Of a stretch of DNA of 64,000 nt, positions 4,764-24,897 are shown one piece after another. How positions within the stretch are numbered: the first letter of the stretch is position 1; each line of letters begins with the position of its first letter. The DNA lies in assembly GCA_015232315.1 (NCBI GenBank), contig JADFZZ010000006.1, positions 94,600 to 158,599 on the forward strand, written 5' to 3'. The DNA comes from SAR324 cluster bacterium. Its GTDB lineage: Bacteria > SAR324 > NAC60-12. A model generated the notes under the pieces. The model did not search any database and was not told the origin of the DNA. It saw nothing but the letters and a program-made list of their open reading frames with translations. Position numbers and translations under genes: made by a program.

Positions 4764-6343
4764 GGTGTGGGTTCTCAGATGCTATTTTCAGGAAAATATT
4801 GCAATCGGGATTTCTGGTTTTTACAATCATGATCATGGGTCTGATTCCTGATCTCTGGGGGATAACTCCACAGTATGGTGGAACATTTATTTACCGGGCG
4901 CCAGATAAGGTTCAAATACTTGATCCGCCTAGAATTGAAGACAATGTCAGTTATAATATTTCAGGCAATATCTATGAGGGTTTAGTACGATATCAGGGTG
5001 AGTCTGCGATTATTGAACCTTCCTTGGCCACACGTTGGGAAGTCTCAAAAGATGGATTGTATTGGACGTTTTTTTTGAGACATGAAGTAGTTTTTCATGA
5101 CAATACAAAGCTTAACGCAAATGCTGTCTTATTTTCATTCATGAGACAGATGGATGAGCATCATCCGTATTATCGAGATGATTTTCTTTATAAAGATGTC
5201 ATTTTCAGCCATGTAAAATCCCTTAGCGTTCTGGATGAATACACCATACAGTTTGAACTTTCCAAACCGTTCAGTCCATTTTTGCATCTACTGACTATGC
5301 CTCCAGCAAGGATCGTATCTCCCGATGCTGTCATGAAAAATCCAGATGAGTTTGGACTGCATCCTGTGGGAACGGGTCCTTTTTATGTCAAGGAATGGAC
5401 TGAGCGTGATTTGGTGCTTGAACCATTCGGTGCGCATTGGGAGGGGCGTCCTTATCTGGATCGGGTCATCATTCAACCTGCAAAATATTTGAAGACGATG
5501 CTTCTAAGTATGAGGCAAGGTAATCTTCACCTTTCAGAAGGGGTTACCAGTCGTGAACTATTATGGGTTCGTGGTGATTCTGAAATAAAAATGAAAAAAA
5601 CCGCGGCCAATTCGATCAAATTTATAGTTTTCCACACCCAAAAACCTCCATTAAACGACATTAGAATCCGTCGAGCTCTTCAAGATGTTTTGAACCGCAA
5701 AGGTTTGGTGAGTTGGTTATGGCAAGATAATGCGCTGCCGACCAATTCACCTGTTCCCCCAAGCAACTGGGCCTACAAAGCGGTTGATATTCCTGTGCAG
5801 AATCTTGAAAAAGCTAAAGAGTTGCTGAATGAAGTCATAACAGAACCGTTATCACTGAAAGTGGTTATGTTGCAAACCCGTGATACAGCATGGGAACGTT
5901 TTTTTGAGAGTTTTTCAGCGGCATGTTCACAGGTGAATGTTCAATTGAATGTGAAGACGTTAAAAGGAAAAGACTATCTTCAGGCAATGAAAACCGGCGA
6001 TTATGATCTAATCTGGATGGGATGGTCTGGAGATCATGCGGATCCTGACAATTTTGTCTATCCCTTGCTTCATTCCATTAATGCGTATCCGGGAAGTTTT
6101 TCAAATTTATCTTATTACAGTAATCCCGTTATGGATGAATTGATTGAAAATGCTCAACGGGAAACCGTCATGGAAAAACGTCAACAGCTATATTATAAAA
6201 TTCAGGAAATACTGGTTGAAGAAATTCCATGGATTCCGATACTTGTTCCACAGAATATTTATCTGTATCACCATTCTGTTCAGGATGTCAGTGTTACTGT
6301 GACCGGGAGGGTAAAGCTCGAAAAAATCTGGATTGAGAAATAA
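4760..6343 (+). CDS. ABC-type substrate-binding protein, family 5 (DppA/OppA/NikA-like), orphan (no permease/ATPase genes adjacent)
   Basis: Signal peptide after the M at 4760 (MRCGFSDAIFRKILQSGFLVFTIMIMGLIP). Family-5 SBP-like segments (GTGPFYVKEW, WSGDHADPDNF). Start placed at 4760 because of ATGA coupling with the upstream ORF. Confidence 0.75.
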   Translation: MRCGFSDAIFRKILQSGFLVFTIMIMGLIPDLWGITPQYGGTFIYRAPDKVQILDPPRIEDNVSYNISGNIYEGLVRYQGESAIIEPSLATRWEVSKDGLYWTFFLRHEVVFHDNTKLNANAVLFSFMRQMDEHHPYYRDDFLYKDVIFSHVKSLSVLDEYTIQFELSKPFSPFLHLLTMPPARIVSPDAVMKNPDEFGLHPVGTGPFYVKEWTERDLVLEPFGAHWEGRPYLDRVIIQPAKYLKTMLLSMRQGNLHLSEGVTSRELLWVRGDSEIKMKKTAANSIKFIVFHTQKPPLNDIRIRRALQDVLNRKGLVSWLWQDNALPTNSPVPPSNWAYKAVDIPVQNLEKAKELLNEVITEPLSLKVVMLQTRDTAWERFFESFSAACSQVNVQLNVKTLKGKDYLQAMKTGDYDLIWMGWSGDHADPDNFVYPLLHSINAYPGSFSNLSYYSNPVMDELIENAQRETVMEKRQQLYYKIQEILVEEIPWIPILVPQNIYLYHHSVQDVSVTVTGRVKLEKIWIEK

Positions 6344-6345
6344 TC

Positions 6346-8310: not shown

Positions 8311-11300
8311 CTACAATTTATCGTTTTGTGTGGATATTAGGGATATGGAGCGTTCTTCATGGCATGATTCCCGGATTGATTTGGGCGGAAGAAGAAGGCT
8401 CAGCTAAGGGTAAACTGGCTGAACTTGAATGGCACACAATCGAAACCAGACACTTTTTCGTCCATTATCATGATGATATCGAAGAACTGGCACGCCTTTG
8501 CACTGTGTATGCTGAAGAATCTCATGAAATTCTCGCCCCCTTGCTGGATTGGGAACCCCAGCAAAAAACACACATGATTATTACCGATATTCTGGATAAT
8601 CAGGATGGCAACGCACGCAATCTCCCTTATCCCATTTTACGAATTTATCCTTATCCGCCAACAATCAACAGTGCCATTGCTGAATATGAGAGCAGTGATT
8701 GGCTGCGTATCCTGATTTTACATGAATATGTCCACATTCTGAATCTGGACACAGTGGCGGGATATTCCAAAGTAGTGAGAGACTGGTTTGGTCGACCGGG
8801 GATTGCGTTCAATCCTTTAGCGGCAACGGGGTTTCTCCATCTGAACAGTCCAAATAACTTTGCTCCTCCCTGGTTGACAGAAGGATTGGCTGTATATCTT
8901 GAAACAGAACTGACTCACTCAGGACGGGGGATTAGTCCTAAGTCAGAAATGCTGTTCAGGATGGGAACGAAATTGAATGATTTGATCAGCCTGGACCAAC
9001 TTGATTTTTATCGTTTGGGATTTCCAGGACAACATGCGTCCAGATATATTTATGGAGCCTATTTCCTTGATTATCTGATCAGTGAAAGATCTCCTGAATA
9101 TGTTGGGAAACTCAATCATCTTCTGGCTGAATGGCCTCCATACATGGGAATACATATGCTGGAAGATGAATCAGGAGCCTATCTGGTAGCGGCTTATGAA
9201 CGTTTTCTGGAATACACCAGGACAGAGCATGAGAAACGGTTGGCGATTCTTGAAACTCAGTCTTTGACCCAGTTTCAGGGAATCCAGACGCATGGTTTTT
9301 TACAACGAAATTTTGCGCTGTCTCCAGATGAACGAAAAATGGCCTTTGTCCTGATTGATGTCAAAGGACAGAAACATTTAAAACTGTGGCGGGAATATCC
9401 ATTGACCGGGGGTTATTTCAGGGAACTGGCTCCGGCAGCAACTCAGGATGACCGATGGATTTATACGACATCTCAGGGAATTCCTGTTGAAGAATTTGAA
9501 ACTTTAACCAATCAGGATGCACTTTCACTCAGTTGGCATCCTTCTGAAAAATATTTATTTTATACCGCCCTGTCTCCAGAAGGAATATATTCATTTCAGG
9601 AGCTTTTCGTTTATGACTTTAAAACCGCAAAAACACATCAACTGACCACAAATGCCAGAATTGGGGATGTGGATGTGTCACCTGACGGCAAATTTCTGAT
9701 TGGTGTTGAAAGCGGGAAAGGGCATCAAAATCTGGTTCTGTATGAATTGACGGAAATCCCTGATTCTGGTGATAAACCACCATTTAAGGCAATGCGTCTG
9801 GATGTCTTGACCAAGCATCAATATTCTCGTGTGAGTCAACCCAAATGGGATCATCAGGGAAAAAGACTGGTGTATTCCCTGTCTGATCGCAAAGGGGATA
9901 CTTTTCTGCCCATTATTGACATGGAATCCCGTCAGGAAATCAAGATTATCTCTCAGGGACACCTCCAATCTAATCCAGTCTGGGAACCTGGGGACAATGC
10001 CATTCTGTTTAGTTCTGATCACACTGGAGTCAGCAATATCTATCGTTACAGTCTGGAGTCAGAGGTCATGCTACCCATCACTCATGTTCTTGGTGGAGCG
10101 TTGGAACCTGTGATTTCAAGGCGAAAGGAAAGACTTTATTTTCAGAATTTTTATGGAGAAGGACTGGAACTGGCGTTTATTGAATGGAAAGCGGGGCAAA
10201 CACGTTCAGAACCTTTGCCACAAATCACGCCTGTCTGGAAGCACCAACCGGAATTGGCTGTGGTGCGGGATGGTTCTGTCACCCAATCTGTGACAGAACC
10301 ACAGGAGCCTTATTCTCCGTGGCAGAGCATGTTTCCGCAGTTCTGGTTTATTTATGCTGAAGATGCTCCGGGAGGTTACGCCTGGGGTTTGATCACAGCC
10401 GGGGTTGATGCGCTGGAAGAACAAGGGTATTACGGTGCGGTAACGTATGGAGAGGGGCAACCTTATTACCGGTTTTCCTATTATACAGACCACTGGTATC
10501 CAAATCTGAGTTTTTCATCTTCATTGCTTCCGCAACGATATTCCAAAATTCCTAATTTGAGACAGGGGTGGGAATTGCTGCAGGAACATGTTGTAGGTAT
10601 TTCCTTCAAGCTGGATGACTGGTCTTTGGGGTTTAATTACCTCAATACCACAGAAACTCCATATGAAGACAGCGGGTTTCTGACTGAAGCCAATAAACGC
10701 GCTACCGAAAAATTGGCTACAGCACAAAATCCTTACCGAAGTGTCGGAGATTATTTCAAGCGTCGGACCTTTACCGGCAATCATCAAGGATTCAATTTGT
10801 TTTCCTCCTATTCTACAGTGTCTCATTTTCCCACGTCAATCAGTGAGGAATCCGGAAGCTATTTTTCGGTTGGTTATACGCATTATCCCACGTCTTTAGG
10901 TGATAATCCTGAAATAAAAACATTGGCCGGGGAAGATTTTGATGCGGCGGTACTGTACATGGAAAATACAGATCCGGGATTCAGCTACGATCAGCTCACA
11001 CCTAGACGGGCAGAAACCCTTGCCAGTCTCCTCCATGCAAAAGAACAACTGGTGTCTAATGAGTATCAATTGCTGACAACCAGTTATGGCCACTTTTTTT
11101 CATCGCCCTGGCCCAGGAATGTGTTCCATTGGAATTTGAATGGGGGGGTTGGATTGAATGGAAGCGAGCTATCTGCGGAATTCATGACCAGAGTCAACAT
11201 TCCAGTTCGTGGTTACAAATATGATCTGGAAACCGCTCGTCAATATATCAGCCAGACCATAGAATGGCGTATGCCGTTAGGGAGTGTTTTCAGAGGAATA

Positions 11301-11606
11301 GGTTTGATCCCTTTTTATTCGGAACAGGTGCATACCGCATTGTTTTATGATTATGCGGTATTTAGTGGGGGGTATACCGCCACAGACATTTATATTGGGG
11401 ATGAATCATTTTTATTACGTGATGACCAGGGGGTGGCCACCCGTCGTGGGACTGGTTTTGAGCTTAAGCTGAGGAGCAAATATGGTTATCGTTTTCCTGT
11501 AGACCTGATTGTCAGGTATTCCTATGCTCCTGATATCAACAATATCGCGGGTATCGACGGCAAGAAGGGCTATCTGCTTGAACTGGATTATGAAACATCG
11601 TTTTAA
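8307..11606 (+). CDS. Large outer-membrane protein: signal peptide, HExxH metallopeptidase-like region, TolB-like beta-propeller repeats, C-terminal beta-barrel
   Basis: ATGA overlap with the cyclase stop (8307-8310). Signal peptide MTTIYRFVWILGIWSVLHG. HEYVH (HExxH) at about residue 140. Repeated propeller-like blades (DVSPDGKFLIGVESGKG, WDHQGKRLVYSLSDRKGD, WEPGDNAILFSSDHTGVSNIYRY). Alternating amphipathic C-terminal strands ending in ...LELDYETSF, an OM beta-barrel terminal Phe signature. Confidence 0.55.
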   Translation: MTTIYRFVWILGIWSVLHGMIPGLIWAEEEGSAKGKLAELEWHTIETRHFFVHYHDDIEELARLCTVYAEESHEILAPLLDWEPQQKTHMIITDILDNQDGNARNLPYPILRIYPYPPTINSAIAEYESSDWLRILILHEYVHILNLDTVAGYSKVVRDWFGRPGIAFNPLAATGFLHLNSPNNFAPPWLTEGLAVYLETELTHSGRGISPKSEMLFRMGTKLNDLISLDQLDFYRLGFPGQHASRYIYGAYFLDYLISERSPEYVGKLNHLLAEWPPYMGIHMLEDESGAYLVAAYERFLEYTRTEHEKRLAILETQSLTQFQGIQTHGFLQRNFALSPDERKMAFVLIDVKGQKHLKLWREYPLTGGYFRELAPAATQDDRWIYTTSQGIPVEEFETLTNQDALSLSWHPSEKYLFYTALSPEGIYSFQELFVYDFKTAKTHQLTTNARIGDVDVSPDGKFLIGVESGKGHQNLVLYELTEIPDSGDKPPFKAMRLDVLTKHQYSRVSQPKWDHQGKRLVYSLSDRKGDTFLPIIDMESRQEIKIISQGHLQSNPVWEPGDNAILFSSDHTGVSNIYRYSLESEVMLPITHVLGGALEPVISRRKERLYFQNFYGEGLELAFIEWKAGQTRSEPLPQITPVWKHQPELAVVRDGSVTQSVTEPQEPYSPWQSMFPQFWFIYAEDAPGGYAWGLITAGVDALEEQGYYGAVTYGEGQPYYRFSYYTDHWYPNLSFSSSLLPQRYSKIPNLRQGWELLQEHVVGISFKLDDWSLGFNYLNTTETPYEDSGFLTEANKRATEKLATAQNPYRSVGDYFKRRTFTGNHQGFNLFSSYSTVSHFPTSISEESGSYFSVGYTHYPTSLGDNPEIKTLAGEDFDAAVLYMENTDPGFSYDQLTPRRAETLASLLHAKEQLVSNEYQLLTTSYGHFFSSPWPRNVFHWNLNGGVGLNGSELSAEFMTRVNIPVRGYKYDLETARQYISQTIEWRMPLGSVFRGIGLIPFYSEQVHTALFYDYAVFSGGYTATDIYIGDESFLLRDDQGVATRRGTGFELKLRSKYGYRFPVDLIVRYSYAPDINNIAGIDGKKGYLLELDYETSF

Positions 11607-11686
11607 TACAGGCTTCAGTTTTGTAAATACTTGTATTATTGTCCATCCCTTTCATGTGTTTTGTTAATTTCTTTAGAGAAAGTAAT

Positions 11687-12376
11687 ATGAAACGATTAAC
11701 TATTCTGGAATGGATCTCATATCTGTCTCTGGCTGGATGCGGGATCTGGATTTTTGTGGCGCCCATTGAATCGGAAATGGGATTTATTCAGAAAATAATG
11801 TATTTGCATTTGCCTTCAGTTCTGGTCACATATCTGGCTTTTTTTGTGGCCTTTGCCTGCAGTATTGCTTATTTGTGGAAACGGGACATTGTTTATGATC
11901 AGGTAGCCCGGTCTTCCGCGGAAGTCGGATTAATTTTTTGCGGGTTGGTTCTGGTAACAGGATCCATCTGGGGAAAACCAACATGGGGCACTTACTGGGT
12001 ATGGGACGCCAGGCTGACCACAACACTCATTCTGTTTATGATTTTTTCAGGTTATTTCCTGCTACGGATGTTTGCGACAGACCACGAACAGCAAGCAAGA
12101 CTTGCTGCAATTCTGGCGATTGTGGGATTTCTTGATATTCCTATCGTTCACCAGTCTGTCAAATGGTGGCGAACATTGCATCAGCCCACGACCTTGTTTA
12201 AAACAGAAAATGGTCAGGCTGCGGCATCTATTCCCAATGAACTGCTGATGCCACTCATGGCCTCGATGCTGGCGGCGTTAGTGTTTTACGTATTTCTGTT
12301 TTTAATGCGGTATGAGGTGGAAAAACGCCATCATGAACTTCAGGAAAAAATTGCGGATCAGCATTTTCATTCATAA
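11687..12376 (+). CDS. ccmC: Cytochrome c-type biogenesis heme exporter protein CcmC
   Basis: Tryptophan-rich WWD motif WGKPTWGTYWVWDARLTTTLILF. Multi-TM protein of ~230 aa. Start moved to the internal ATG at 11687 (MKRLTILEW...) preceded by a weak RBS. The ORF track's 11639 start adds an unlikely N-terminus. Confidence 0.8.
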   Translation: MKRLTILEWISYLSLAGCGIWIFVAPIESEMGFIQKIMYLHLPSVLVTYLAFFVAFACSIAYLWKRDIVYDQVARSSAEVGLIFCGLVLVTGSIWGKPTWGTYWVWDARLTTTLILFMIFSGYFLLRMFATDHEQQARLAAILAIVGFLDIPIVHQSVKWWRTLHQPTTLFKTENGQAAASIPNELLMPLMASMLAALVFYVFLFLMRYEVEKRHHELQEKIADQHFHS

Positions 12377-12396: not shown

Positions 12397-12546
12397 ATGC
12401 CAATGAATCTCGATTATGTCCTTGCTTCATACGGAATTACATGTGGAGTTTTTTTGATTTACATCGTTGTGATGAAATTAAAATTACGTGAATATAACAA
12501 ACAGATGGGGGCGCACCCTGAATCAGAAAATGGAGACAAATTATGA
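12397..12546 (+). CDS. ccmD: Small single-TM protein, probable heme exporter protein CcmD (49 aa; absent from the ORF track because it is under 60 aa)
   Basis: ORF ATG at 12397, TGA at 12544-12546, translating MPMNLDYVLASYGITCGVFLIYIVVMKLKLREYNKQMGAHPESENGDKL. One hydrophobic helix followed by basic residues. It lies between ccmC and ccmE and overlaps the ccmE start codon (ATGA), the canonical position and size for ccmD. Confidence 0.5.
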   Translation: MPMNLDYVLASYGITCGVFLIYIVVMKLKLREYNKQMGAHPESENGDKL

Positions 12547-12977
12547 AAACAAAATATAAATTTTTAATTGGCGGACTAGTTGTATTCGGCGCGATTGTGG
12601 CACTGTCCATTGTTGGGCTTCAGGAAATGACGGTCTTTTTTTATACACCTCAGGAAATTCTGGCCGCGCCAGATGATTTTCAGGAAAAAACAATTCGAAT
12701 TGGTGCCATGGTGGAGAAGGGATCTATCGATTGGGATGCTGGAAAAATTAAACTGGCATTCAGAATGACAGAAGACTCTCAACATTATATTCCTGTAGTA
12801 TATCATGGGGTCAAACCTGATATGTTCAAAGAAGGACAGGGGGTTGTGGTGCAGGGGCAACTTGAGGGAGATACTTTTTATGCGGATGAATTACTGGTGA
12901 AACATAGCGAAGATTATAAACTCGAAGCGGGTGACCATAAAAATAAACAAGAAATGTACAAATCTTTGATGCAGTAA
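12543..12977 (+). CDS. ccmE: Cytochrome c-type biogenesis protein CcmE (periplasmic heme chaperone)
   Basis: N-terminal TM anchor then an OB-fold region with the conserved FRMTED-like and LVKHSEDY (heme-binding His) segments. 144 aa, typical CcmE size. Confidence 0.85.
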   Translation: MKTKYKFLIGGLVVFGAIVALSIVGLQEMTVFFYTPQEILAAPDDFQEKTIRIGAMVEKGSIDWDAGKIKLAFRMTEDSQHYIPVVYHGVKPDMFKEGQGVVVQGQLEGDTFYADELLVKHSEDYKLEAGDHKNKQEMYKSLMQ

Positions 12978-12992: not shown

Positions 12993-15209
12993 ATGTCTGC
13001 CATTATCCGGGAAATCAAACAGCGTCTTGGGGATTTGCTGGAAACAGATCCCCGAATCCGCAATCGGCTGTTAGCAACAGTTGTTCTGTTGTTTTTGATC
13101 ATTTTTCTTGTTTTTTTTGATATCCAACAGGGATTTTCAGAATGGGAAAATATCAATTCCAAATTGAGCATTTTTGTAGCTCTCAACATCAATCTGGTGT
13201 TGTTGGTTCTGGTATTTTATCTCATTCTCAAAAACATTCTGAAACTGGCCTATGAACGTCACAAGCATGCTATTGGCGTTAATTTAAAAACAAAACTGAT
13301 CATTTCATTTCTCCTCCTCTCATTTCCAGCAACAATTTTCCATTTGTTCGCCAGTGGTTTTATCGCCTCAACACTGGAAAACTGGCTCACTGGTCAGCAT
13401 AAATCCGTCATACATAATGCTCAGAAAGTTGCGGATGCTTATCATCGAAATCTGAAAAACATCATGGATTTACAAGGGTGGGTGGTTGAAGCGAACCTTC
13501 AGCGTCATCCTGAACTTCTGGAATATCCCTCTTCACTGGATCATATTCTTACCAAGGAAATGGGGGAAGGGATTATTCTTTATAATCAGAATCATGAAAT
13601 GATGTATCAGGCATTGCGCAATACAGATTCCCAGAAATACTGGAAACCTTTGTCATCGACAGAATGGGAACAAATTGATATAGCGCCGGTTGCCTGGCTG
13701 GTAGAAGAATTGGAGGATCGGTTTATTTATCGTCATTTAAGAAATATGAAAGTCAGGGAACAGCGTTGGATACTGGAAATATTTCTGCCGGCCACCAAAA
13801 GTGTGACATTGGCCATCAATGAAATTGCTGAACAGGAACAGAATTCCAAGGTGATTTTTGAGTCGGAACAATTGGTCAAACAATACTATGTCATCATCTT
13901 TCTGTTCATGACCTTGTTTATCATTTTTGTGGCAATCTGGCTTGCTTTCTATCTGGCGCGGGGGTTTGTGAATCCCATTGAAAAACTTGCGATCGCGACC
14001 CAGCAGGTTGCTGAGGGGGCGTTGGGATATCAGGTCGAGAAATCAACCATGATGCTTGATCGTGATTTTGAGTTATTGATTGATTCGTTCAACTCCATGA
14101 GTAATCAATTGCTCGAAAATCAGTTGGCGTTAGCTCAGACCACGGAAAATCTTAGAAAAAGCCATATAATTCTTGAAGAACACACACGGTTTGTGGAACT
14201 GGTGCTGGAAAATATAAAAACCGGAGTGATGTCTGTTGATATGGAAGGAAGGGTTAATGGGTTGAACCGGGCGGCATTGTCGTTGCTGGAAGTTAAAATG
14301 AAAGATTATCACAATATCCATTATAGGGATTTATTATCCACGGATGCTCTGGAACCTCTGGATGAAATGTTCCACCAGATTCAGCAACAAACAGATTTCA
14401 CCATATCAAGAAATTTGAGTATGACCAAAAGCGGAGTGCCGGTTCATGTTTCTATGACCGCGTTGATTTTAAAAAATCCGGAAGGTAATACCGAAGGGAT
14501 GATTGCTGTGTTTGAAAATATTACGGAAATACAACGCTTGCAGCGGGCACGAGCATGGCGTGAAGTCGCACGCAGAATTGCTCATGAAATCAAAAATCCT
14601 TTAACCCCCATTCAGCTTTCTGCAGAAAGAATCCGGCATAAATACAGCCGATTGATTGAGGATGGAGATACGCTGGATAAATCAACGAAAACTATTATTC
14701 GGGAAGTAGAACAGCTTAAAAAAATGGTCAGTGAGTTTTCAAAATTCGCACGATTGCCTGAATCTAATCCTCAACAAGACAATCTCAATGACATTATTGA
14801 GGAAACAGTCCAATTGTATCATGCGATTCCACCGGAAATTGTTTTAAAAACCAGACTTTCACCCAAGCTTCCCAGATTTTCCGTGGACCGTGAACAGATC
14901 AAACGTGTGTTTATTAATCTCATTGACAATGCGATTGCCGCTATTGATAAGAGTGGTGAAATTCTGATACAGACAGAATATGATGCTGTGTTTAAAATCG
15001 TTCGCATTGATGTGATTGACTCTGGTCCCGGAATTGATCCTGCCATCCTTAATCGTTTATTTGAACCCTATGCGACCACAAAAAAACATGGGACAGGTTT
15101 GGGGTTAACCATTGCGAGTCAAATTATCTCGGATCATCAGGGATTTATTCGCCACAAAAAACCGAAAAATGGAGGAGCCTGCTTTTCAATTGAACTACCT
15201 GCTGTGTAA
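12993..15209 (+). CDS. NtrY-like sensor histidine kinase (multi-TM N-terminus, HAMP, PAS, HisKA, HATPase_c)
   Basis: H-box HEIKNPLTPIQLSAE, N/G boxes DNAIAAI, DSGPGI and GTGLGLTI. Four N-terminal TM segments and ~740 aa length match the NtrY architecture. No response regulator gene is adjacent. Confidence 0.8.
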   Translation: MSAIIREIKQRLGDLLETDPRIRNRLLATVVLLFLIIFLVFFDIQQGFSEWENINSKLSIFVALNINLVLLVLVFYLILKNILKLAYERHKHAIGVNLKTKLIISFLLLSFPATIFHLFASGFIASTLENWLTGQHKSVIHNAQKVADAYHRNLKNIMDLQGWVVEANLQRHPELLEYPSSLDHILTKEMGEGIILYNQNHEMMYQALRNTDSQKYWKPLSSTEWEQIDIAPVAWLVEELEDRFIYRHLRNMKVREQRWILEIFLPATKSVTLAINEIAEQEQNSKVIFESEQLVKQYYVIIFLFMTLFIIFVAIWLAFYLARGFVNPIEKLAIATQQVAEGALGYQVEKSTMMLDRDFELLIDSFNSMSNQLLENQLALAQTTENLRKSHIILEEHTRFVELVLENIKTGVMSVDMEGRVNGLNRAALSLLEVKMKDYHNIHYRDLLSTDALEPLDEMFHQIQQQTDFTISRNLSMTKSGVPVHVSMTALILKNPEGNTEGMIAVFENITEIQRLQRARAWREVARRIAHEIKNPLTPIQLSAERIRHKYSRLIEDGDTLDKSTKTIIREVEQLKKMVSEFSKFARLPESNPQQDNLNDIIEETVQLYHAIPPEIVLKTRLSPKLPRFSVDREQIKRVFINLIDNAIAAIDKSGEILIQTEYDAVFKIVRIDVIDSGPGIDPAILNRLFEPYATTKKHGTGLGLTIASQIISDHQGFIRHKKPKNGGACFSIELPAV

Positions 15210-16782
15210 GAACCTTGTGCGCCTGATCTTGCTGATAACAGTTGGAAGCTCAATTATATTTTTGTTTGCTGGTAATTCAGCCGGTGCTGATTCAAACTCC
15301 AGAGTCCTTGAAATTGTCGTAACGTCAGACTTACATGGAAATCTGGGGGATGAAACAAATTCATTTTCTCCTGCCGGAATCACGACTCTAGTACCTTTGA
15401 TTCACTCCCTCAGACAAAATAATCCGAATTTAATCCTGCTGGATGCAGGTGATACATTAAATGGTGACAGGCTATCCTATTACATGGATAAGGTGATGGC
15501 TCATCCCGTTCCTCCATGGCCAATCATCCAGCTTATGAACGCTCTTGAGTATGATGCGGTTGTTCCTGGAAATCATGATTTCGATTGGCCTGCTTCCGTT
15601 TTTGTCCGTTCCATCCAAATGTCTCAATTTCCCTGGATTTCAGCCAATATCAAGAATCATTCAATAGAAAACCTGTTTTTAGCCCAATATCGGATTATTC
15701 AACGACAAGGACTAAGGATCGGTATTCTTGGTTTGACAACGCCAGGAGTCCCCTTATGGGTTGATACCTCCAATTTAGGAACATTGGTGGTTGACGACAT
15801 GGTTTCAGCGGCCCGGCATTGGAGTCAGGTTTTAAAACCGCAGGTAGATATTTTGATAGGTTTGTTTCATAGCGGCGAAGAAGCTGATTATGATTATCAG
15901 GAAAGCTTGCTAAAACAGATTCCAATGCCAAATGCATCAGGAATAATCGCGGATTCTATCTCTGATTTTGATCTGATCATTGCAGGACATACGCATAAAA
16001 TATTCCCTCGAACTCAAAAATCGATGCCCGGTTCTTTCATTATGCCGTTGATACTTCCGGGAAGTCATGGCGAAGGACTCATGGATATTCAACTGCACCT
16101 GAAATTCATAAATGGAAGATGGAATGTGACTCAAACAATGGCTGAATTTAAAAGGCCTCTTAAAAAATCTCTCACAGACCAAAGTAATAAAACTCTTGCG
16201 TATCTTGACCCATGGATGAAGGGGGTTAATCAATATTTTGATGCAAAGACTGCAATCCAATTTGTAAAGGATCCTGCAAAAATAGAACTGGAATCCTGTG
16301 GTCGTCAGTTATCGTATGACGCATTGGTTTATTTTGAAGGGAATGGAGATGCCGCGGTGCTTTCAAATTGGAAATGGAACAGGATGCCAAAAAAAATTGC
16401 AGGAATCTACCTTTCCAGAAAACATTTGTTTGATTGGATGCCATACTTTAATAAGATTGTGAGAGCTTCAATTAGTGGGAGTCAACTTACAATGCTGAAA
16501 CGATTGGAGCGGAAAAAGCAAAAACGTCCTGGAAGGCAGATTTATGTTGTTCCAGACCTGGATCAAAAAAAATTGGTTGCTGACCAGTTTTATTCCATAT
16601 GGTTCACCAATTATCACTGGAATGGCGGATCAGGAATTACACTGGAAAGCTTGATTGAACCGGAACAGAAGCGCAATTTGAGTCAGCAGATTCTTCAGGA
16701 ATATATCTTTTATTATCTCCGGAAATTTCCAGAACAATTACCAGAGATTTGTAAAGGTTTTTTGAAATCTGTTGGGGATTAA
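15169..16782 (+). CDS. Secreted bifunctional metallophosphatase / 5'-nucleotidase family protein
   Basis: Calcineurin-like motifs DLHGN, DAGDTLNGD, GNHDFD and GHTHK. Signal-peptide-like LILLITVGSSIIFLFAGNSAGA. Start is uncertain: the ATG at 15169 overlaps the kinase by 41 nt, and a GTG at 15217 is an alternative. Confidence 0.55.
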   Translation: MEEPAFQLNYLLCKNLVRLILLITVGSSIIFLFAGNSAGADSNSRVLEIVVTSDLHGNLGDETNSFSPAGITTLVPLIHSLRQNNPNLILLDAGDTLNGDRLSYYMDKVMAHPVPPWPIIQLMNALEYDAVVPGNHDFDWPASVFVRSIQMSQFPWISANIKNHSIENLFLAQYRIIQRQGLRIGILGLTTPGVPLWVDTSNLGTLVVDDMVSAARHWSQVLKPQVDILIGLFHSGEEADYDYQESLLKQIPMPNASGIIADSISDFDLIIAGHTHKIFPRTQKSMPGSFIMPLILPGSHGEGLMDIQLHLKFINGRWNVTQTMAEFKRPLKKSLTDQSNKTLAYLDPWMKGVNQYFDAKTAIQFVKDPAKIELESCGRQLSYDALVYFEGNGDAAVLSNWKWNRMPKKIAGIYLSRKHLFDWMPYFNKIVRASISGSQLTMLKRLERKKQKRPGRQIYVVPDLDQKKLVADQFYSIWFTNYHWNGGSGITLESLIEPEQKRNLSQQILQEYIFYYLRKFPEQLPEICKGFLKSVGD

Positions 16783-17870
16783 GGATGTGTTTGTTGTTTG
16801 ACAAAGTTATGAAGCCATGTTTTAGAACACAGGTTGGGATCCTGACTCCATTGATAGAATAATTCCTTTAGCGCTGTCCATTGGCTCAAAGCTGGATGAT
16901 TTGAGAGAAGTTGGAAAATATCATGGATCGTTCCGGGAATGGCATCCAGAAAATAAAATTTCCCTTTTTGCGACGGAAGAAAACCATACGTGCCAAGGGA
17001 ACGTAACCGTCGAATCAATACAAAATTATAAAGAGTCTCTGTAAATTCAGCGTGAGACGGTTTCATCGTAGACGGAAGTTCATCCAGATATGTTTCAATT
17101 AATAGTTGTCGGAGCGGTTCGTTCAATCGAGCTTTGGAGGCATAAAGCATGGTGGCAACATCATAATGAATTGCACCGGGGCATCCAGATTGATAATCAA
17201 TAAAACAGGGGTGATTCTTTTTCCACATGATATTTCTGGACTGGAAATCCCGATATACAAAGGATTGGCGTTCAATCTTGTCCAGTTGTAAAGCCAGTTG
17301 CTCCAGTTCCTGTTGAATCATGCCTGATTTGGGGTAATTGCTGGCAAACAGATTCCAGAAATATTGCTCAAAATACCTCAAGTCTGTCATAAAAGTATTG
17401 TAATCCAGGATTTTATCCATATAGCAAAATTGATAATCAAGCCCTTGATGACCCTGCAATTGAAGCTTCGGAAGCCAGTGTATGACCTGATGGTAATAAT
17501 TCTGGATCAGTTTGGCATCCTGTGGATTGTCGGGATCAAGTGGTTGAAGCATATCCGCCAGAGTGATGTCACCCAGATCTTCAAGCAGATAACAGCCATG
17601 ATTTAGATCCGTTTGATAAATATCTGGTACAGGAATGCCATATTGGGCAAAGTGACGCGATAACAGAATAAAAGCTTCATTTTCCAAACGATGTGAGTTG
17701 GTCACACCGACAAAAGAAAAACCATCAGGACGAAAGAAACGATAAATCTCTCTATCTGAACCATCTCCCTTCAGTGGCTTGGGATCGGATATTTGGGAGC
17801 CAAAATGTTGTTTTGCCAAGTTTGTTAAAGATTGTAGCATTATTCGGTTCTCAGCAAGTAATGTAGTCAA
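16779..17870 (-). CDS. Aminoglycoside-phosphotransferase-fold (APH/choline-kinase family) kinase, possibly an AmgK-like sugar kinase
   Basis: Brenner-type catalytic motif region HYDVATMLY and DYQSGCPG within a 363-aa protein. Fold assignment only; substrate not inferable. Confidence 0.55.
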   Translation of the reverse strand: MTTLLAENRIMLQSLTNLAKQHFGSQISDPKPLKGDGSDREIYRFFRPDGFSFVGVTNSHRLENEAFILLSRHFAQYGIPVPDIYQTDLNHGCYLLEDLGDITLADMLQPLDPDNPQDAKLIQNYYHQVIHWLPKLQLQGHQGLDYQFCYMDKILDYNTFMTDLRYFEQYFWNLFASNYPKSGMIQQELEQLALQLDKIERQSFVYRDFQSRNIMWKKNHPCFIDYQSGCPGAIHYDVATMLYASKARLNEPLRQLLIETYLDELPSTMKPSHAEFTETLYNFVLIRRLRSLGTYGFLPSQKGKFYFLDAIPGTIHDIFQLLSNHPALSQWTALKELFYQWSQDPNLCSKTWLHNFVKQQTHP

Positions 17871-17951
17871 ATATTTTATAATTGTGTTTCTCTGATGTGC
17901 GGTTTTTCCAGACTACTAACCAGAAATTCTTTTGCAAGGCCGCATGATTCC

Positions 17952-20738
17952 ATGAGGGCTGTAATTAGTTTTTTTGTTATCATTTTCTGGTTGTTGCCGC
18001 TACAAAATTTATTTGCCCAGAATAATGACTGGCCTCATTATAAAATTGAGGTTCACTATCACGATGAATCCAGGGTGTTGCAAGGAAAATGTTCAATCAC
18101 CTTTAACCCTCAGATTTATTCTGGACGTGAATTGATAGTGAGTTTGCCTATGAACCGTTTTGCTTCGATTGATCACCGGGGCACACGTAAAATTTTGGAA
18201 ACTCCTGTTTTTGCATTAGATTCTTACAGCAGACTGAAAGATGATCCTTTGTTTCCCTATGGGTTCCAAAAAGGATTTACCAAGATTGACTCTCTTACAG
18301 ATACCAACAACCGGCCAATTCCATTTTCCATCGAGAATAACCCGGATCTGCCTGTTGGATACAGCACGGAACATGGACTATTACGAGTTTCTCTTGAAGA
18401 GGCAATTCCTGAAAATACGCTTGTTTTTGAATTTACTACCAAATTGCCGGTACGGTTTCAGGACGGACTTGTCTTTAAGGAATTGATGGTAGTTGAATGG
18501 CACCCAGTTTTGCTGTCCTACAAGCATGGAACATGGATAAAGGATATGATGGAACCATCTCCTGGAATCTATGAAGTCATGTGGACTGCTGATACTACAG
18601 GACTTTTAATCACTTCGGCTGGAGATCTGGAATACGGCCAAGCCAGGCAACATGTCAAACTTGAACAAGTCCAGCCGCTCAAATATTTTCCACTGATTTT
18701 CTCACCGAATTATTCTCGATTGAATACTGGACATCCGGTAATCGAGTCCTATTATTTTTCAGAAGATCTACGTCGTGCCCAATTACTACAGATCTGGGGG
18801 GAAGAATTTCTTGATTATATGGCCTCTGAATTTGATTTGAAGCAACCGTGGGACAAAATCAGAATAGTGGAGGTGAGAGGCAATTATGAAGATATCAGGG
18901 TTGTCAATAATCTCATATTGGTCACGATTCCTCATTACAAACGCAGCACCTTTATGGACAGGCGAGTATTGGGCTTTTTTTCGCGTGGTATGGCAGAATT
19001 ATGGTTTGGTGAGAAGGTTTGGGCCAATGAGGATACGCAATTATGGTTGCATATGGGACTGCCAGCCTTTTTCAGTCTGAAATTTTTTGAATATAAATAT
19101 GGGCTTGACGCTAGAATTTTTGATTTTTTTGACTGGCTGAATCCTCACTATCGGGAGCACTTTTTTGAAAGCATGGTGCGCGGAGTGAATCCGGCTTTGG
19201 AAGTACCGATTATGTCTAAAATTTCAAAGTTATCCGACTATCGGGTCTATCTGAAATTTGCGACTTATAAGACAGCATTGGTATTTTCCATGTTACAGTA
19301 TCTGACCGGAAATGCTGCTTTCAGGAAAGGACTTCGTCATTTTTTTGAAAATAATCAGTATCAGGTGGTGACCTTAAAGGATATTCATCAATCTATGGAG
19401 CAAATGTATCCTGAACCGCTGGATTGGTTTTTTTTGCAATGGTTCTATACCACAGATACAATGGATTACGGGATTCGTGAATTCACGTATGATGAATTGC
19501 CAGCGGGAGGATATGAAGTCAGGGTTGTTATTGAAAAAAAAGACAAAGGACAGATGCCGGTTGATGTTGTTATTGAAACCGAAGATGAGCAGGTGATCCA
19601 TAAACGCGCATTGGGAAATCAGGATATTGAGATGATCCGATTTATTACCGTCTCTCCTCCTGTATCCATATCTTTGGATCCTGATGAAATATTATTGGAG
19701 ACTGATAGACAAAACAACCAATCATTTCATTATTTCAGAGTCCGTTTTGCGTTTGACTGGCAGAAAAACAGGGAAATTCTGATCACGTTGGTTCCTAGAG
19801 GAAGCAGTAATGCATTTGATGGCAACCATATTGGTTTGGAAACCAGACATGTTATTGGTGATTATATCTATAATGTGACACCTGGCTATGGAACAAAAAA
19901 CGAACAGCTTACCTATCAATCCTCTGTTGAACGAAGGAATTTGTTGGGAATTAAGGGGTTTGTCGCCAATGTTAATCTTTCCCGGATTGGAGGTATTTTA
20001 TCGAAAGGAGTGGGACTCCTTTATAGTTCGCCTCAACATCAGGAAAAATACTCTTACAATTATGCCGTCAATCTGGCCCAGCAAGCAGCTTTTAAAGCCA
20101 GAAAAACGTCGTCAGGTATCTCTTCAGATATCATTGAAACAGGGGATACCAGCAATATTTCCATATCACATACCAGCAACATTGGATTTGGAAATATATA
20201 TTATCTGGAATTCAATCTGGGATTCGAAAAACCAGTTCTCGCATTGGGGTCTGATTTTGACTACACACTTTGGACTGCTAAAATCCAGCATGCGATCAAA
20301 ACAGGTTTTCGTAAAAGAATTGACTGGGAATGGATAGGGGGAACGACCCAAGGAACCAGTCCATTACAGAAACATCACCAACTTGGCAGTCCAACGGTAT
20401 TGAGAGGTTATCCCCAAAGGACAATCCTGCGGGATGAAAATTTGCTGGCAATGCGGTGTGATTTTTCATTTCCGGTTATTTCTTCACAGTGGTGGGGGGA
20501 TATCTCATCACTTGGAGTTTTAGGAGGTATTTTTTATGATATGGGTAAAGTTTGGGGTAATGATGTGAATCCTGCGGATGTACCACTTCGTCAGGATGTT
20601 GGTGTTGGTCTGGTATGGAACATCAATGCCGTTTCATTGGCAGAAGCCCCCTTGAAAATTGAAGTTGCCTACCCTCTCAATGATCCGGAATTTACCAAGC
20701 CACAGCTTATTCTATTTGAAGTATTAAGCATTTTTTAA
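17952..20738 (+). CDS. Large outer-membrane protein with N-terminal gluzincin/M1-peptidase-like domain (zinc motif degenerate) and C-terminal beta-barrel
   Basis: Start set at the internal ATG at 17952, giving signal peptide MRAVISFFVIIFWLLPLQNLFAQ. The segment GMAELWFGEKVWANEDTQLWLHMGL resembles the M1 HExxH-x18-E region but lacks the two His. C-terminal ~350 aa are alternating beta-strand-like and end in ...FEVLSIF. Confidence 0.5.
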   Translation: MRAVISFFVIIFWLLPLQNLFAQNNDWPHYKIEVHYHDESRVLQGKCSITFNPQIYSGRELIVSLPMNRFASIDHRGTRKILETPVFALDSYSRLKDDPLFPYGFQKGFTKIDSLTDTNNRPIPFSIENNPDLPVGYSTEHGLLRVSLEEAIPENTLVFEFTTKLPVRFQDGLVFKELMVVEWHPVLLSYKHGTWIKDMMEPSPGIYEVMWTADTTGLLITSAGDLEYGQARQHVKLEQVQPLKYFPLIFSPNYSRLNTGHPVIESYYFSEDLRRAQLLQIWGEEFLDYMASEFDLKQPWDKIRIVEVRGNYEDIRVVNNLILVTIPHYKRSTFMDRRVLGFFSRGMAELWFGEKVWANEDTQLWLHMGLPAFFSLKFFEYKYGLDARIFDFFDWLNPHYREHFFESMVRGVNPALEVPIMSKISKLSDYRVYLKFATYKTALVFSMLQYLTGNAAFRKGLRHFFENNQYQVVTLKDIHQSMEQMYPEPLDWFFLQWFYTTDTMDYGIREFTYDELPAGGYEVRVVIEKKDKGQMPVDVVIETEDEQVIHKRALGNQDIEMIRFITVSPPVSISLDPDEILLETDRQNNQSFHYFRVRFAFDWQKNREILITLVPRGSSNAFDGNHIGLETRHVIGDYIYNVTPGYGTKNEQLTYQSSVERRNLLGIKGFVANVNLSRIGGILSKGVGLLYSSPQHQEKYSYNYAVNLAQQAAFKARKTSSGISSDIIETGDTSNISISHTSNIGFGNIYYLEFNLGFEKPVLALGSDFDYTLWTAKIQHAIKTGFRKRIDWEWIGGTTQGTSPLQKHHQLGSPTVLRGYPQRTILRDENLLAMRCDFSFPVISSQWWGDISSLGVLGGIFYDMGKVWGNDVNPADVPLRQDVGVGLVWNINAVSLAEAPLKIEVAYPLNDPEFTKPQLILFEVLSIF

Positions 20739-21088
20739 GGTTCTATCCTGAGTGTCGTTTGTGTTTCCTGATGCCCAAGAATAACGAATCCAGAATCTAT
20801 TTTCAAAATCCTGTAGGATTTTGCTTCTTCTCCTGTTTTCAGAATATATTTTAGGTCGTTAATCTGAATATAAGCGTGTGCAATGCCATCAATTCTTCCA
20901 ATCGCCAGAAGTTTTGGTTCTGACTGATTTGCTACAGATTTTGCTGAATCTGAAGGTTTTGGTGCACTTGCGGGAACAGGCTTAGTCGGTTGAATCAGGC
21001 TGGAAAAAGGATCCCTTTCCTGAGCCGATGTTGATGATGGGAACATTAATAAAAAAAGGATCAGCGTAGTTGGAATGAAGGGTATCAT
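20735..21088 (-). CDS. PilP/GspC-like small periplasmic pilus/secretion assembly protein
   Basis: 117 aa with signal peptide, an early RDPF motif (common in PilP), a Pro/Ala/Ser-rich linker and a C-terminal beta-rich domain. Directly downstream of the PilO-like gene. Confidence 0.4.
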   Translation of the reverse strand: MIPFIPTTLILFLLMFPSSTSAQERDPFSSLIQPTKPVPASAPKPSDSAKSVANQSEPKLLAIGRIDGIAHAYIQINDLKYILKTGEEAKSYRILKIDSGFVILGHQETQTTLRIEP

Positions 21089-21098
21089 GGTTCAAGGA

Positions 21099-21707
21099 TT
21101 ATTGAAGGTTGATCGCATTCGGCGATTGAGTTTGGGATAAGGCATAACGATGATAGACACTCAGGGAAATGTTGATTTTTAAATCTGGTGTGACTGTTTT
21201 TGAAACCTGATTCTCAATGTGAAGTTTTCGGATGTTGATCAGGATAGGAAGTTCCTGAATTTTTTTAATAAACTGGATCAATTGACGGTATTGGCCGGTT
21301 AGTTCCAGAACAATGCTAAGTTCAGCATAATGTTCAAACGGTTTTTCAGGGGGGATAACCTGCCGTAACAGTTTGATTTGGCTTTCTTTGACTACTTTAA
21401 AAAGATGCTGATTTAATTCAGCAATATTCCATTCCAGCGGGAGCGCTCTGTCGATAAGTTGCATTTGCTCCTGAATCCTTTGTTTTTCAGCCTCAAAATG
21501 TGTTTGATGCCGCTCATATTGTTGTAGTTCATTCAGAGCCTGAACAGATTCCGTGAGTTTTTTTTCCAATCGGGTTTTGTCGTTTAATGCGGGTCTGAGT
21601 TTCAGATTATAAAACATCATCATGCATAATATAATGCCCAGAATGATTAGAAGCAGTTTTTTTTGTTCATGATTCCAATTGCCTGGAATTGATAAAATAG
21701 TATTCAT
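21099..21707 (-). CDS. PilO/GspM-like bitopic inner-membrane assembly protein
   Basis: Topology: short cytoplasmic N-terminus, single TM (LLLIILGIILCMMMFY), coiled-coil segment, periplasmic domain. 202 aa. Matches PilO/GspM organisation. Confidence 0.5.
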   Translation of the reverse strand: MNTILSIPGNWNHEQKKLLLIILGIILCMMMFYNLKLRPALNDKTRLEKKLTESVQALNELQQYERHQTHFEAEKQRIQEQMQLIDRALPLEWNIAELNQHLFKVVKESQIKLLRQVIPPEKPFEHYAELSIVLELTGQYRQLIQFIKKIQELPILINIRKLHIENQVSKTVTPDLKINISLSVYHRYALSQTQSPNAINLQ

Positions 21708-23655: not shown

Positions 23656-24897
23656 TTATTGAAAAATTGTATGTTTCAATTCGATATTCAAAACAAATTC
23701 TGTGACTTCTCTCTGATAAAGTTCGACTTTTTGTTGTAATTTAAAATGAACGTTTTGGATGAGTGAATTACTTTTCAATGAGACAAGCACTTGCGGAATT
23801 AATTCCGGATCAATCGTGAAGAGTGCCACCTCTACTTTGCCATCCTGATAATCCAGCGATTTAACCCAGACACCTTGAATGGGCGAAATGATTTGATCCA
23901 GAACAGAGTGCGCCAGCGAAGAATAGGTCTTTAAATGTTGATAAAGCGCATTGACCTGAAGAAAATGGTTTTGCTGTGCGGTATAATCATTGAGAAGTTG
24001 GAGTTGAATTCGACGTTCATCCGTTTTAAGCATGGCCTGCGTCAATTCGGTTTTGATATGATCTATGGAATTGCGAGTGTATTGATGCCAAATAAGAATT
24101 CCTGAAATTAATAGGGAGGGGACTGCAATTAACAGGGATTTTTGATATTTTGCGAGATTCTGTGATTTCTGTACATTCCAGGAAAAAGGATGTCGGGTTG
24201 AGGTTTGGGAAAATTGCCCTTGGGAAATTAAATTTTCAATGGTCAGAGTATTTGTCGCCTCATCTTGATTAACAGAGATCGTTAGACAGGTTAGTTGTTG
24301 AGTCTCCAACTGTTTCATATCTGCGAGCAGCAGTAATGCCTGTTGCCGGTCAGTTGCATGGATATTTACCCATTGCTGAATTTTTCCTCGTTGGGTTTGG
24401 ATAAACGTGTATTTAGCGGCTGTTTCGAGAAGAATATGATGGTTAGGATATTGCTGTAATTCTGGAATGCACAAATAAGTGAGTGGTATTGATTCAATAG
24501 GGGTTCGAGACAGTTTTTGCAGAACTTTAATCAATGCTTGTGTTGCGAAGGACATCATCGAACAGAATAACGCACCGAATTGTGTGCCATCTTCTAAAAA
24601 ACAGAAACCCACAGAAGAATCCAGTATATGAGGGGTTTGGAACCGATTCCTGATATATTGGGTAATTTCTTCGTTGTTTAAGGATGTGAATAACTGTTCA
24701 TGGGAATTCATCACCCAGGGATATTCAAGCAATAGAATAATTTTTGAATATTTTTTTTGAGGGAATAGTTCGGCAATGGATTGGGGTGAATTATCGGATG
24801 GATACGTGGTAGAAAATATTTGTTTTCCATTTGATAGCCCCCACACTTGGTGGGGCCCCAGGATCAGATAAAAAATATCTTTTGAGAATAACCGCAT
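23656..24897 (-). CDS. GspL-like or PilM-PilN fusion-like assembly protein (cytoplasmic actin-like domain, TM, periplasmic domain)
   Basis: ~250-aa cytoplasmic N-domain, single TM (LLIAVPSLLISGILIW) near residue 255, then coiled coil plus ~130-aa periplasmic domain. Sits between the prepilin peptidase and PilO/PilP-like genes. Confidence 0.45.
   Translation of the reverse strand: MRLFSKDIFYLILGPHQVWGLSNGKQIFSTTYPSDNSPQSIAELFPQKKYSKIILLLEYPWVMNSHEQLFTSLNNEEITQYIRNRFQTPHILDSSVGFCFLEDGTQFGALFCSMMSFATQALIKVLQKLSRTPIESIPLTYLCIPELQQYPNHHILLETAAKYTFIQTQRGKIQQWVNIHATDRQQALLLLADMKQLETQQLTCLTISVNQDEATNTLTIENLISQGQFSQTSTRHPFSWNVQKSQNLAKYQKSLLIAVPSLLISGILIWHQYTRNSIDHIKTELTQAMLKTDERRIQLQLLNDYTAQQNHFLQVNALYQHLKTYSSLAHSVLDQIISPIQGVWVKSLDYQDGKVEVALFTIDPELIPQVLVSLKSNSLIQNVHFKLQQKVELYQREVTEFVLNIELKHTIFQ

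Follow-up and report, generated by a model that had tools for sequence, protein, structure and literature searches.

A peptidase M1 homologue without an active site, fused to an Omp85 barrel in SAR324 bacteria

Background

Omp85 proteins form the core of outer-membrane biogenesis. BamA, which carries five POTRA domains, and TamA, which carries three, act as insertases of outer-membrane proteins (OMPs). Here we describe a gene from a SAR324 cluster bacterium, a member of an abundant, uncultured phylum of the deep ocean. The gene lies on the forward strand at positions 17952 to 20738 of a stretch of 64,000 nucleotides (contig JADFZZ010000006.1, positions 94,600 to 158,599, assembly GCA_015232315.1), which is called the window below. 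It encodes a Sec-exported outer-membrane protein of the Omp85 superfamily that has a module of the peptidase M1 type in place of POTRA domains, and this module has lost the catalytic motifs of its family.

Omp85 proteins without POTRA domains have been described before. The WD40-Omp85 subfamily was reported in 2014 by Heinz and Lithgow, and 'Metallo'-Omp85 and noNterm proteins also belong to this group (PMC4104836). The SAR324 protein shares with them a C-terminal 16-stranded barrel, the lid-lock motifs and a non-POTRA N-terminus. It differs in that its N-terminal module has the M1 peptidase fold and is catalytically dead. These accepted subfamilies (noNterm, WD40 and Metallo) likewise lack POTRA domains, the one Omp85 feature examined that is absent from the SAR324 protein.

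The type Vd protein PlpD also carries an enzyme-fold domain fused N-terminal to an Omp85 barrel. Its patatin domain was long thought to be exported, but has been shown to reside in the periplasm only (PMC11116518). PlpD is a precedent for a periplasmic location of such a domain, and also for new functions built on the Omp85 scaffold. However, PlpD has a POTRA domain and an active patatin lipase, whereas the SAR324 protein has neither a POTRA domain nor an active site. Pfam finds no patatin or POTRA match in it, and only the barrel is shared with type Vd proteins.

A third comparison is with BepA, an M48 zincin that docks on the machinery for beta-barrel assembly (BAM), and whose edge strand is needed for its chaperone-like action on LptD (PMC8423444). 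As proposed for the SAR324 protein, a gluzincin-type module is thereby situated beside an Omp85 barrel in the periplasm and has a non-proteolytic, chaperone-like function that involves the edge strand at which substrate is bound. In contrast, BepA is a separate, soluble and active protease composed of M48 and TPR domains, and the likeness is one of functional analogy only.

With family M1 itself (PepN, ERAP1, IRAP and tricorn-interacting factor F3), the protein shares domains I to III (Foldseek E values of 1e-20 to 1e-17), the WFG and WLxxG helices and, within the close family, the catalytic Tyr. It differs from these enzymes in lacking HExxH-x18-E, the GxMEN Glu and helical domain IV, and in being fused to a membrane barrel. 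Among the degenerate LytM (M23) factors, such as EnvC and NlpD, are envelope proteins of metallopeptidase fold that no longer have zinc ligands and have taken on binding or regulatory roles. These are of another fold and family, and they have no barrel fusion.

Architecture of the SAR324 protein

Both halves of the protein are recognized by Pfam. Peptidase_M1 matches amino acids 285 to 497 (E 1.3e-12; 48.2 bits against a cut-off of 27.7), and Omp85 (PF01103) matches amino acids 684 to 918 (E 1.5e-9; 38.3 bits against a cut-off of 24). When the C-terminal fragment is searched alone, the Omp85 match reaches E 1.4e-10. Because the scores are well above the cut-offs, the matches are far beyond chance. 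An AlphaFold2 model built on 26 family members (mean predicted local distance difference test score, pLDDT, of 78.8; predicted template-modeling score, pTM, of 0.74) comprises, in order, a signal helix, an all-beta domain, a thermolysin-like helical domain, a beta-sandwich, a linker and 16 strands. In Foldseek comparisons, approximately 610 N-terminal residues align to PepN (E 1.9e-20), IRAP, ERAP1, ERAP2 and tricorn factor F3 (E values to approximately 4e-17). The N-terminal module thus covers M1 domains I to III, whereas the barrel stands where long M1 enzymes have helical domain IV, which is missing.

The coding sequence is complete and 928 codons long, as judged from the open reading frame (ORF) and its translation, from M1 and Omp85 matches above the Pfam gathering cut-offs and from 34 full-length homologues. 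The longest ORF begins at 17895, and the Met at 17952 yields a typical Sec signal peptide, MRAVISFFVIIFWLLPLQNLFA/Q. This peptide (amino acids 1 to 23, MRAVISFFVIIFWLLPLQNLFAQ, positions 17952 to 18020) was read from the sequence, lacks a lipobox Cys and has residues 2 to 20 modeled as a helix. Directly after it, P28, Y30 and V34 are near-invariant in the alignment of homologues. The start at 17952 that had been assigned originally is therefore correct, because the signal peptide and these conserved residues follow it. The protein ends in LILFEVLSIF, and the frame closes at 20738. A GenBank protein (P0001) from a metagenome-assembled genome (MAG) of the SAR324 group is 100% identical, but is annotated from Met67 and is only 862 amino acids long. 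That start is a mis-called codon, which costs the protein amino acids 1 to 67 (17952 to 18152), including its signal peptide and first conserved strand.

All parts of the protein are encoded on the forward strand. The M1 domain-I-like beta domain (amino acids 29 to 270, positions 18036 to 18761) has no Pfam match on its own, but is all-beta in the model and is aligned by Foldseek to PepN, IRAP and ERAP1. The thermolysin-like 'catalytic' domain (amino acids 273 to 500, positions 18768 to 19451) is the part matched by Peptidase_M1; profile searches of PDB sequences connect it to F3, IRAP, PSA and ERAP2, with a best E value of 5e-12 for F3. A domain-III-like beta-sandwich (amino acids 506 to 575, positions 19467 to 19676) is predicted from the modeled strands and from alignment to the beta-sandwich of F3. 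It is followed by the linker DPDEILLETDRQNNQSFHYFRVRFAFDWQKNRE (amino acids 576 to 608, positions 19677 to 19775), which is the most conserved segment of the protein, and in which R596, R598, D602 and W603 are invariant and clade-specific. No POTRA domain is found by Pfam in the whole protein, nor at E<=10 when amino acids 501 to 620 are searched separately, and in the model the beta-sandwich runs straight into the linker and barrel.

The Omp85-type barrel occupies amino acids 609 to 928 (positions 19776 to 20735) and ends in LSIF. Its 16 strands are predicted to lie between amino acids 609 and 922, with loop 6 between beta11 and beta12. The lid-lock motifs of Omp85 proteins are (L/M)RG(W/Y) on loop 6 and FxDxG on beta13 (PMC11358297). 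The SAR324 protein has LRGY at amino acids 817 to 820 (positions 20400 to 20411), in the long loop that joins beta11 to beta12 and includes a short helix, and FYDMG at amino acids 861 to 865 (positions 20532 to 20546) on beta13. At R818, G819, F861, D863 and G865, conservation across the family is 90% or higher. The original prediction of an M1-like or gluzincin-fold N-terminal module followed by a C-terminal outer-membrane barrel ending in Phe thus agrees with the Pfam, PDB profile and Foldseek results. The word 'giant' in it does not fit the barrel, which has the usual 16 strands of Omp85 proteins and approximately 320 amino acids; the protein is large because of its 570-amino-acid N-terminal module.

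Loss of the active site

Catalytic positions were assigned by HMMER alignment to tricorn-interacting factor F3, together with column-by-column alignment tables. The zinc motif of active M1 enzymes, HExxHxWFG-x13-E, is replaced by RGMAELWFGE-x13-M at amino acids 345 to 368 (positions 18984 to 19055), where RGMAELWFGE itself spans amino acids 345 to 354. The first His has become R345, the catalytic Glu G346 and the second His E349. The Glu that serves as the third zinc ligand has become M368, where WLNEG has become WLHMG. There is no HExxH anywhere else in the protein. The GxMEN edge-strand motif is degenerate as well, and reads RVVNN (positions 18897 to 18911); its Glu corresponds to N319, and both N319 and N320 are invariant in the alignment of close SAR324 relatives. 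Loss of the zinc motif, and with it the status of pseudo-peptidase, had been recognized from the sequence at the outset. The claim that the trailing Glu of the motif is retained was mistaken, since M368 occupies that position.

Other elements of the M1 fold have been kept. These are the WFG and WL..G helix signatures and the edge strand that formerly carried GxMEN. The Tyr that stabilizes the transition state (Y439) is invariant in the close SAR324 alignment, and is replaced in a second SAR324 sub-clade, where the sequence is L-x-x-K-A-P. The alignment of the approximately 45 members of the clade reveals no zinc motif in any of them.

With both His residues, the catalytic Glu, the third-ligand Glu and the Glu of GxMEN replaced, the protein, as far as its sequence tells, cannot be an M1-type zinc peptidase, and these losses predict that it has no aminopeptidase activity. 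As the fold is that of M1 and both the zinc motif and GxMEN are lost, the protein is an M1 non-peptidase homologue and not an aminopeptidase.

Active relatives and evolution

A word-indexed search found 34 full-length homologues, all with M1 and Omp85 domains, and those with names are SAR324 or 'Deltaproteobacteria' MAGs. An exhaustive HMMER search of 1.84 billion representative sequences returned 174 proteins at E<=1e-30. When these were aligned with hmmalign, every match down to E values of approximately 1e-97 lacked the zinc motif, and the nearest intact relative was P0153 (E 1.8e-96). Among the top 148 representatives, 21 combine the intact H-E-H-E residues with a barrel homologous to that of the SAR324 protein, and 30 have such a barrel with a degenerate motif.

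Pfam confirmed the M1 and Omp85 combination in four intact proteins (P0153, P0159, P0160 and P0162), of which P0159 is from Candidatus Omnitrophota. Proteins of the same length with an intact motif are also encoded in loci of Kryptonium, Chlorobiaceae and Ignavibacterium album from GTDB genomes (L016, L019 and L022), and their terminal Phe is the last residue or at most four residues from the C-terminus. The Kryptonium barrel matches the profile of the SAR324 family barrel (E 4e-15), whereas the Chlorobiaceae and Ignavibacterium barrels do not, and none of the three proteins matches Pfam Omp85 at E<=0.001. These three are probable members of the M1-Omp85 architecture. In the Chlorobiaceae MAG, an 810-amino-acid signal peptide peptidase of the SppA type (S49) is encoded directly after the intact M1-barrel protein, at positions 5005 to 7437 of the forward strand of locus L019. 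This neighbor may hint at what the active relatives do, but is not conserved in the other loci examined.

The intact fusions resemble the SAR324 protein in architecture, in length (approximately 920 to 1060 amino acids), in a homologous M1 module and, where detected, in a homologous barrel. They differ in keeping H-E-H-E, and are annotated only as 'M1 family aminopeptidase'. As read from this motif, they are probably the true catalytically active counterparts of the SAR324 protein, and they are found in other phyla.

In a rough neighbor-joining tree, the pseudo-clade is monophyletic and divides into two sub-clades. One, with R-G… at the former zinc site, includes the protein described here, and the other has R-A-x-L. 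The named members of both are SAR324 or Candidatus Lambdaproteobacteria, and the pseudo-M1-Omp85 design has so far been seen, among named members, in the SAR324 phylum only. Loss of the zinc site is ancient and common to the clade of approximately 45 members. A second degenerate M1-Omp85 clade (P0186, P0201, P0250, P0253 and P0272) is independent in the same tree. It has the motif K/R/N-G/S/A-x-x-Y/L/Q/T…E, in which the last Glu is retained. Catalysis has therefore been lost more than once within the M1-Omp85 architecture. The most economical history is that an active, outer-membrane-tethered M1-Omp85 peptidase came first, that the zinc site was lost a single time at the base of a SAR324 lineage, and that strong constraint followed.

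In the library searched, we found no paper on M1-Omp85 fusions, on pseudoenzymes linked to Omp85 proteins or on BamA of SAR324. No entry for the M1 family (PF01433) appears among the domain architectures that the supplement of the 2014 Omp85 survey lists (PMC4104836). Thus the architecture is missing from the reference classification of that year, and the sequences are public under generic and partly misleading names. The label 'M1 family aminopeptidase' is wrong for the SAR324 protein because no active site remains. P0001 bears the GenBank name 'BamA/TamA family outer membrane protein', which is misleading because the protein has no POTRA domains. Identity with BamA or TamA was rejected on the same grounds, and because a profile of the barrel has no match to a solved BamA or TamA at E<=1.

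Conservation of the degenerate module

Conservation was compared between segments as the mean pairwise identity among 24 full-length relatives. The linker has the highest value (71%), followed by the catalytic-like domain (51%), the N-terminal beta domain and the barrel (44% each) and the beta-sandwich (38%). The pseudo-clade also has conserved features of its own. At 47 positions, residues are at least 90% conserved within it and less than 50% conserved in the catalytically intact relatives. Clade-specific blocks include LPxNRFxxxDxRG in the N-terminal domain, the insertion motif DWxNPxYREHFxE at amino acids 394 to 406 and FRVRFAFDWxKxRE in the linker. According to the alignment, this insertion motif, here DWLNPHYREHFFES, is specific to the pseudo-clade; it is encoded at positions 19131 to 19172, where the model has low pLDDT. 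Within the pseudo-clade, conservation of E402, H403 and E406 is 95% or higher, whereas active relatives do not conserve them. The opposite pattern, of conservation in intact relatives and less than 50% in the pseudo-clade, is found at only three positions, the catalytic E, H and E. The first zinc His is missed by this filter because the Arg that replaces it is too frequent in the pseudo-clade. Such a pattern reads as the signature of neofunctionalization.

With 51% identity against 44%, the dead domain is conserved no less than the barrel, which indicates a working pseudoenzyme and not a decaying one. The catalytic residues are indeed gone, and GenBank annotates a truncated start, as might be expected of a non-functional gene or of an annotation artefact. 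However, the frame of 928 codons is intact, the signal peptide and the C-terminal beta-signal are present, and more than 45 full-length orthologues with 37 to 55% identity exhibit strong conservation across all domains. Decay or artefact is accordingly scarcely credible, and the pseudogene reading was rejected on the segment conservation data.

Possible function

By analogy with described systems, we propose, with a probability of approximately 0.6, that the N-terminal module of the protein sits in the periplasm, tethered under an Omp85 barrel, and binds polypeptides without catalysis. The pseudo-M1 module would stay in the periplasm, held beneath the barrel by the conserved linker. To our knowledge, the N-terminal region is periplasmic in all Omp85 proteins that have been studied, and the even number of strands and the intact lid-lock make a periplasmic position under the barrel the most likely one here. 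The M1 fold binds extended peptides along its edge strand and in the groove beside the zinc site. In the SAR324 protein, the remaining elements of this groove (the edge strand with its invariant NN, the WFG signature and Tyr439) might bind extended polypeptides without cleaving them, and the module might act as an outer-membrane-anchored receptor, holdase or scaffold in the assembly or quality control of envelope proteins. Its mode of action would be comparable to that of BepA at the BAM complex or of the degenerate LytM factors. The ancestral active fusions would have been periplasmic peptidases tethered to the outer membrane.

Several points weigh against this proposal. In the second SAR324 sub-clade (LxxKAP), Tyr439 is replaced, and the GxMEN Glu, which anchors the amino group of the substrate, is gone, so that peptide binding in the canonical M1 mode is uncertain. 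The periplasmic topology is suggested by analogy only. Moreover, a profile of the barrel alone has no match among PDB sequences at E<=1, and sequence does not place the barrel beside BamA, TamA, PlpD or FhaC.

Perhaps the barrel is the functional unit, a specialized insertase or translocase resembling BamA or TamA, and the dead M1 module is an inert scaffold for partners that binds no peptide. The hallmark Omp85 motifs are conserved, the NCBI name assigns the protein to the BamA/TamA family, and noNterm Omp85 proteins (PMC4104836) and a POTRA-less Sam50 (PMC11358297) suggest that barrels can work alone. This explanation is nevertheless unlikely. The M1-like domain is more conserved than the barrel, and 47 conserved positions are specific to the clade, which would be surprising if the module were an inert spacer. 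Furthermore, the nearest relatives are intact peptidase fusions, and hence barrel and module already worked together before loss of the zinc site. Still less probable is that the barrel exports its own pseudo-M1 module, in the manner of type V systems, for display on the cell surface as an adhesin or as a nutrient-capture receptor that binds peptides or proteins. Export was the historical model for PlpD and type Vd proteins, and was raised for 'Metallo'-Omp85 by Heinz and Lithgow (PMC4104836). Outer-membrane barrels with aminopeptidase passengers do exist, such as the autotransporter AaaA (PMC6555100), and the lack of POTRA domains and the highly conserved linker of the SAR324 protein are consistent with export. 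However, the passenger of PlpD proved to be exclusively periplasmic (PMC11116518), the intact LRGY and FYDMG motifs imply a closed extracellular dome as in BamA, and a folded three-domain module of 570 amino acids would be a poor passenger for a 16-stranded barrel.

The protein might also still be an enzyme whose catalysis was rebuilt, for example by way of E402-H403-x-x-E406 in the insertion motif. HxxE serves to bind metal in other metallopeptidase families, and the high conservation of these three residues (at least 95%) is confined to the pseudo-clade. We consider this very improbable. The insertion comes after the C-terminus of the 'Glu helix' of 20 residues and so presumably lies far from the former zinc site, it is modeled with low confidence (pLDDT 36 to 54), and no third ligand is evident. 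We know of no precedent for a rebuilt active site in M1.

A second Omp85 protein in the window

The window holds two POTRA-less Omp85 proteins with zincin-type modules, which belong to different subfamilies. The other is encoded at positions 8307 to 11606 of the forward strand, and consists of a zincin (HEYVH…E), a TolB-like propeller and a barrel, as in the WD40-Omp85 subfamily. H139, E140, H143 and E192 of this protein are invariant in 30 homologues, and it is therefore probably an active zincin, in agreement with the original description of it as apparently active. The zincin domain has only a weak hint of Peptidase_MA_2 (E 0.064), and does not belong to M1. The propeller that follows is supported by an NCBIfam TolB match (E 1.3e-16), by an AlphaFold2 model (pLDDT 86.4) and by Foldseek matches to TolB. 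Some of the homologues, which include proteins of Gemmatimonadota, Myxococcota and others, score with PF01103. Neither Pfam nor AlphaFold2 reveals a propeller in the pseudo-M1 protein, which thus lacks this feature of the WD40-Omp85 subfamily, whereas the 8307 protein has it.

The original prediction held that the two proteins follow the same overall logic. BLASTP between them yields nothing significant, but hhalign aligns the barrels with a probability of 96.8% (E 2.3e-10) over 142 columns that span the RGY and FxDxG motifs. The barrels are thus distantly homologous, and this part of the claim holds. The N-terminal modules have an hhalign probability of 0.5% and no relationship, so the part that concerned the N-domains was not upheld. 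Nor do the two proteins form a lineage-specific family with one active and one inactivated member, as had been suggested, because the 8307 protein belongs to the widespread WD40-Omp85 subfamily and the active counterparts of the pseudo-M1 protein occur in other phyla. The cytochrome c maturation genes ccmC and ccmE are located immediately after the 8307 gene (11639 to 12376 and 12543 to 12977).

Genomic context

The genes around the pseudo-M1-Omp85 gene are housekeeping genes, and include ccmC and ccmE, sensor kinases, a sulfatase, a lipid A acyltransferase and dxs, among others. A scan for promoters and terminators around the gene gave results at chance level. Its divergent neighbor (positions 16779 to 17870, reverse strand) encodes a kinase of the APH family in Pfam. 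The best NCBIfam match of this kinase is AmgK, a kinase of N-acetylmuramic acid and N-acetylglucosamine, with E 2e-14 and a score short of the cut-off. The AmgK-like kinase is syntenic with the pseudo-M1-Omp85 gene in three other SAR324 genomes (L001/L005, L004/L008 and L006). This synteny is confined to the closer SAR324 lineage. It does not extend to the marine SAR324 loci or to the P0016/P0022 clade, in which the pseudo-M1-Omp85 gene comes after purLFMND. The active relatives are found in unrelated gene contexts. No conserved operon partner was found among the loci of SAR324 and of active relatives that were examined, and therefore the protein is probably a self-contained unit. An amgK-lptD arrangement in Pseudomonas, considered as a parallel to the kinase neighbor, was not documented in our literature search and was dropped as evidence.

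Downstream, a 117-amino-acid ORF (positions 20735 to 21088, reverse strand) is convergent with the gene. As first noted, the two overlap by 4 nucleotides, since TTAA at positions 20735 to 20738 is common to both stop codons. Its product has a signal or transmembrane segment, a Pro-rich linker and a small beta domain. The description of this ORF as PilP-like is weakly supported. The ORF has no match in Pfam or PDB, and its sole signal is a weak NCBIfam match to GspC_delta (E 0.018). It is preceded by a PilO/GspM-like gene (positions 21099 to 21707, reverse strand), and next comes a sulfatase gene on the opposite strand; there is no adjoining pilM, pilN or pilQ. In locus L006, too, the M1-Omp85 gene has the PilO gene downstream of it.

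Several further genes of the window deserve mention. Two adjacent genes on the forward strand (positions 56668 to 58011 and 58008 to 61286) encode proteins of 447 and 1092 amino acids, each of which combines a cyclophilin-type peptidyl-prolyl isomerase with rotamase domains of the parvulin/SurA type. This architecture is unusual, and the proteins may be envelope chaperones. On the reverse strand, an 807-amino-acid protein (positions 31435 to 33858) has no Pfam family and only a weak match to a coiled-coil family of spirochaetes, and a 413-amino-acid protein without a Pfam family (positions 23656 to 24897) is encoded just downstream of a prepilin peptidase gene. A 556-amino-acid Metallophos ORF with a TTG start (positions 15112 to 16782, forward strand) overlaps the histidine-kinase gene at positions 12993 to 15209 of the same strand by approximately 100 nucleotides, and its true start is probably further downstream.

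Implications

Only recently did PlpD reveal that the Omp85 scaffold can take on new functions, outside those of BamA, TamA and TpsB. Matched active and dead versions of the M1-Omp85 architecture constitute a natural experiment, in which it can be asked what is gained from a tethered zincin and what remains of it without catalysis. On a more speculative level, it is possible, though we hold the idea only tentatively, that the protein is an Omp85 machine specific to the SAR324 phylum, with a dead M1 receptor instead of POTRA domains. If true, the protein would represent a new class of factor for outer-membrane assembly, translocation or quality control, which arose by silencing of an outer-membrane-tethered protease. 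Alternatively, it might bind peptidoglycan stem peptides and so tether the outer membrane to the cell wall. As a conserved envelope protein that is restricted to one phylum, it is a potential lineage marker and a clue to the biology of the SAR324 envelope. Its interest would rise if SAR324 bacteria used it in place of, or alongside, the canonical factors of OMP assembly.

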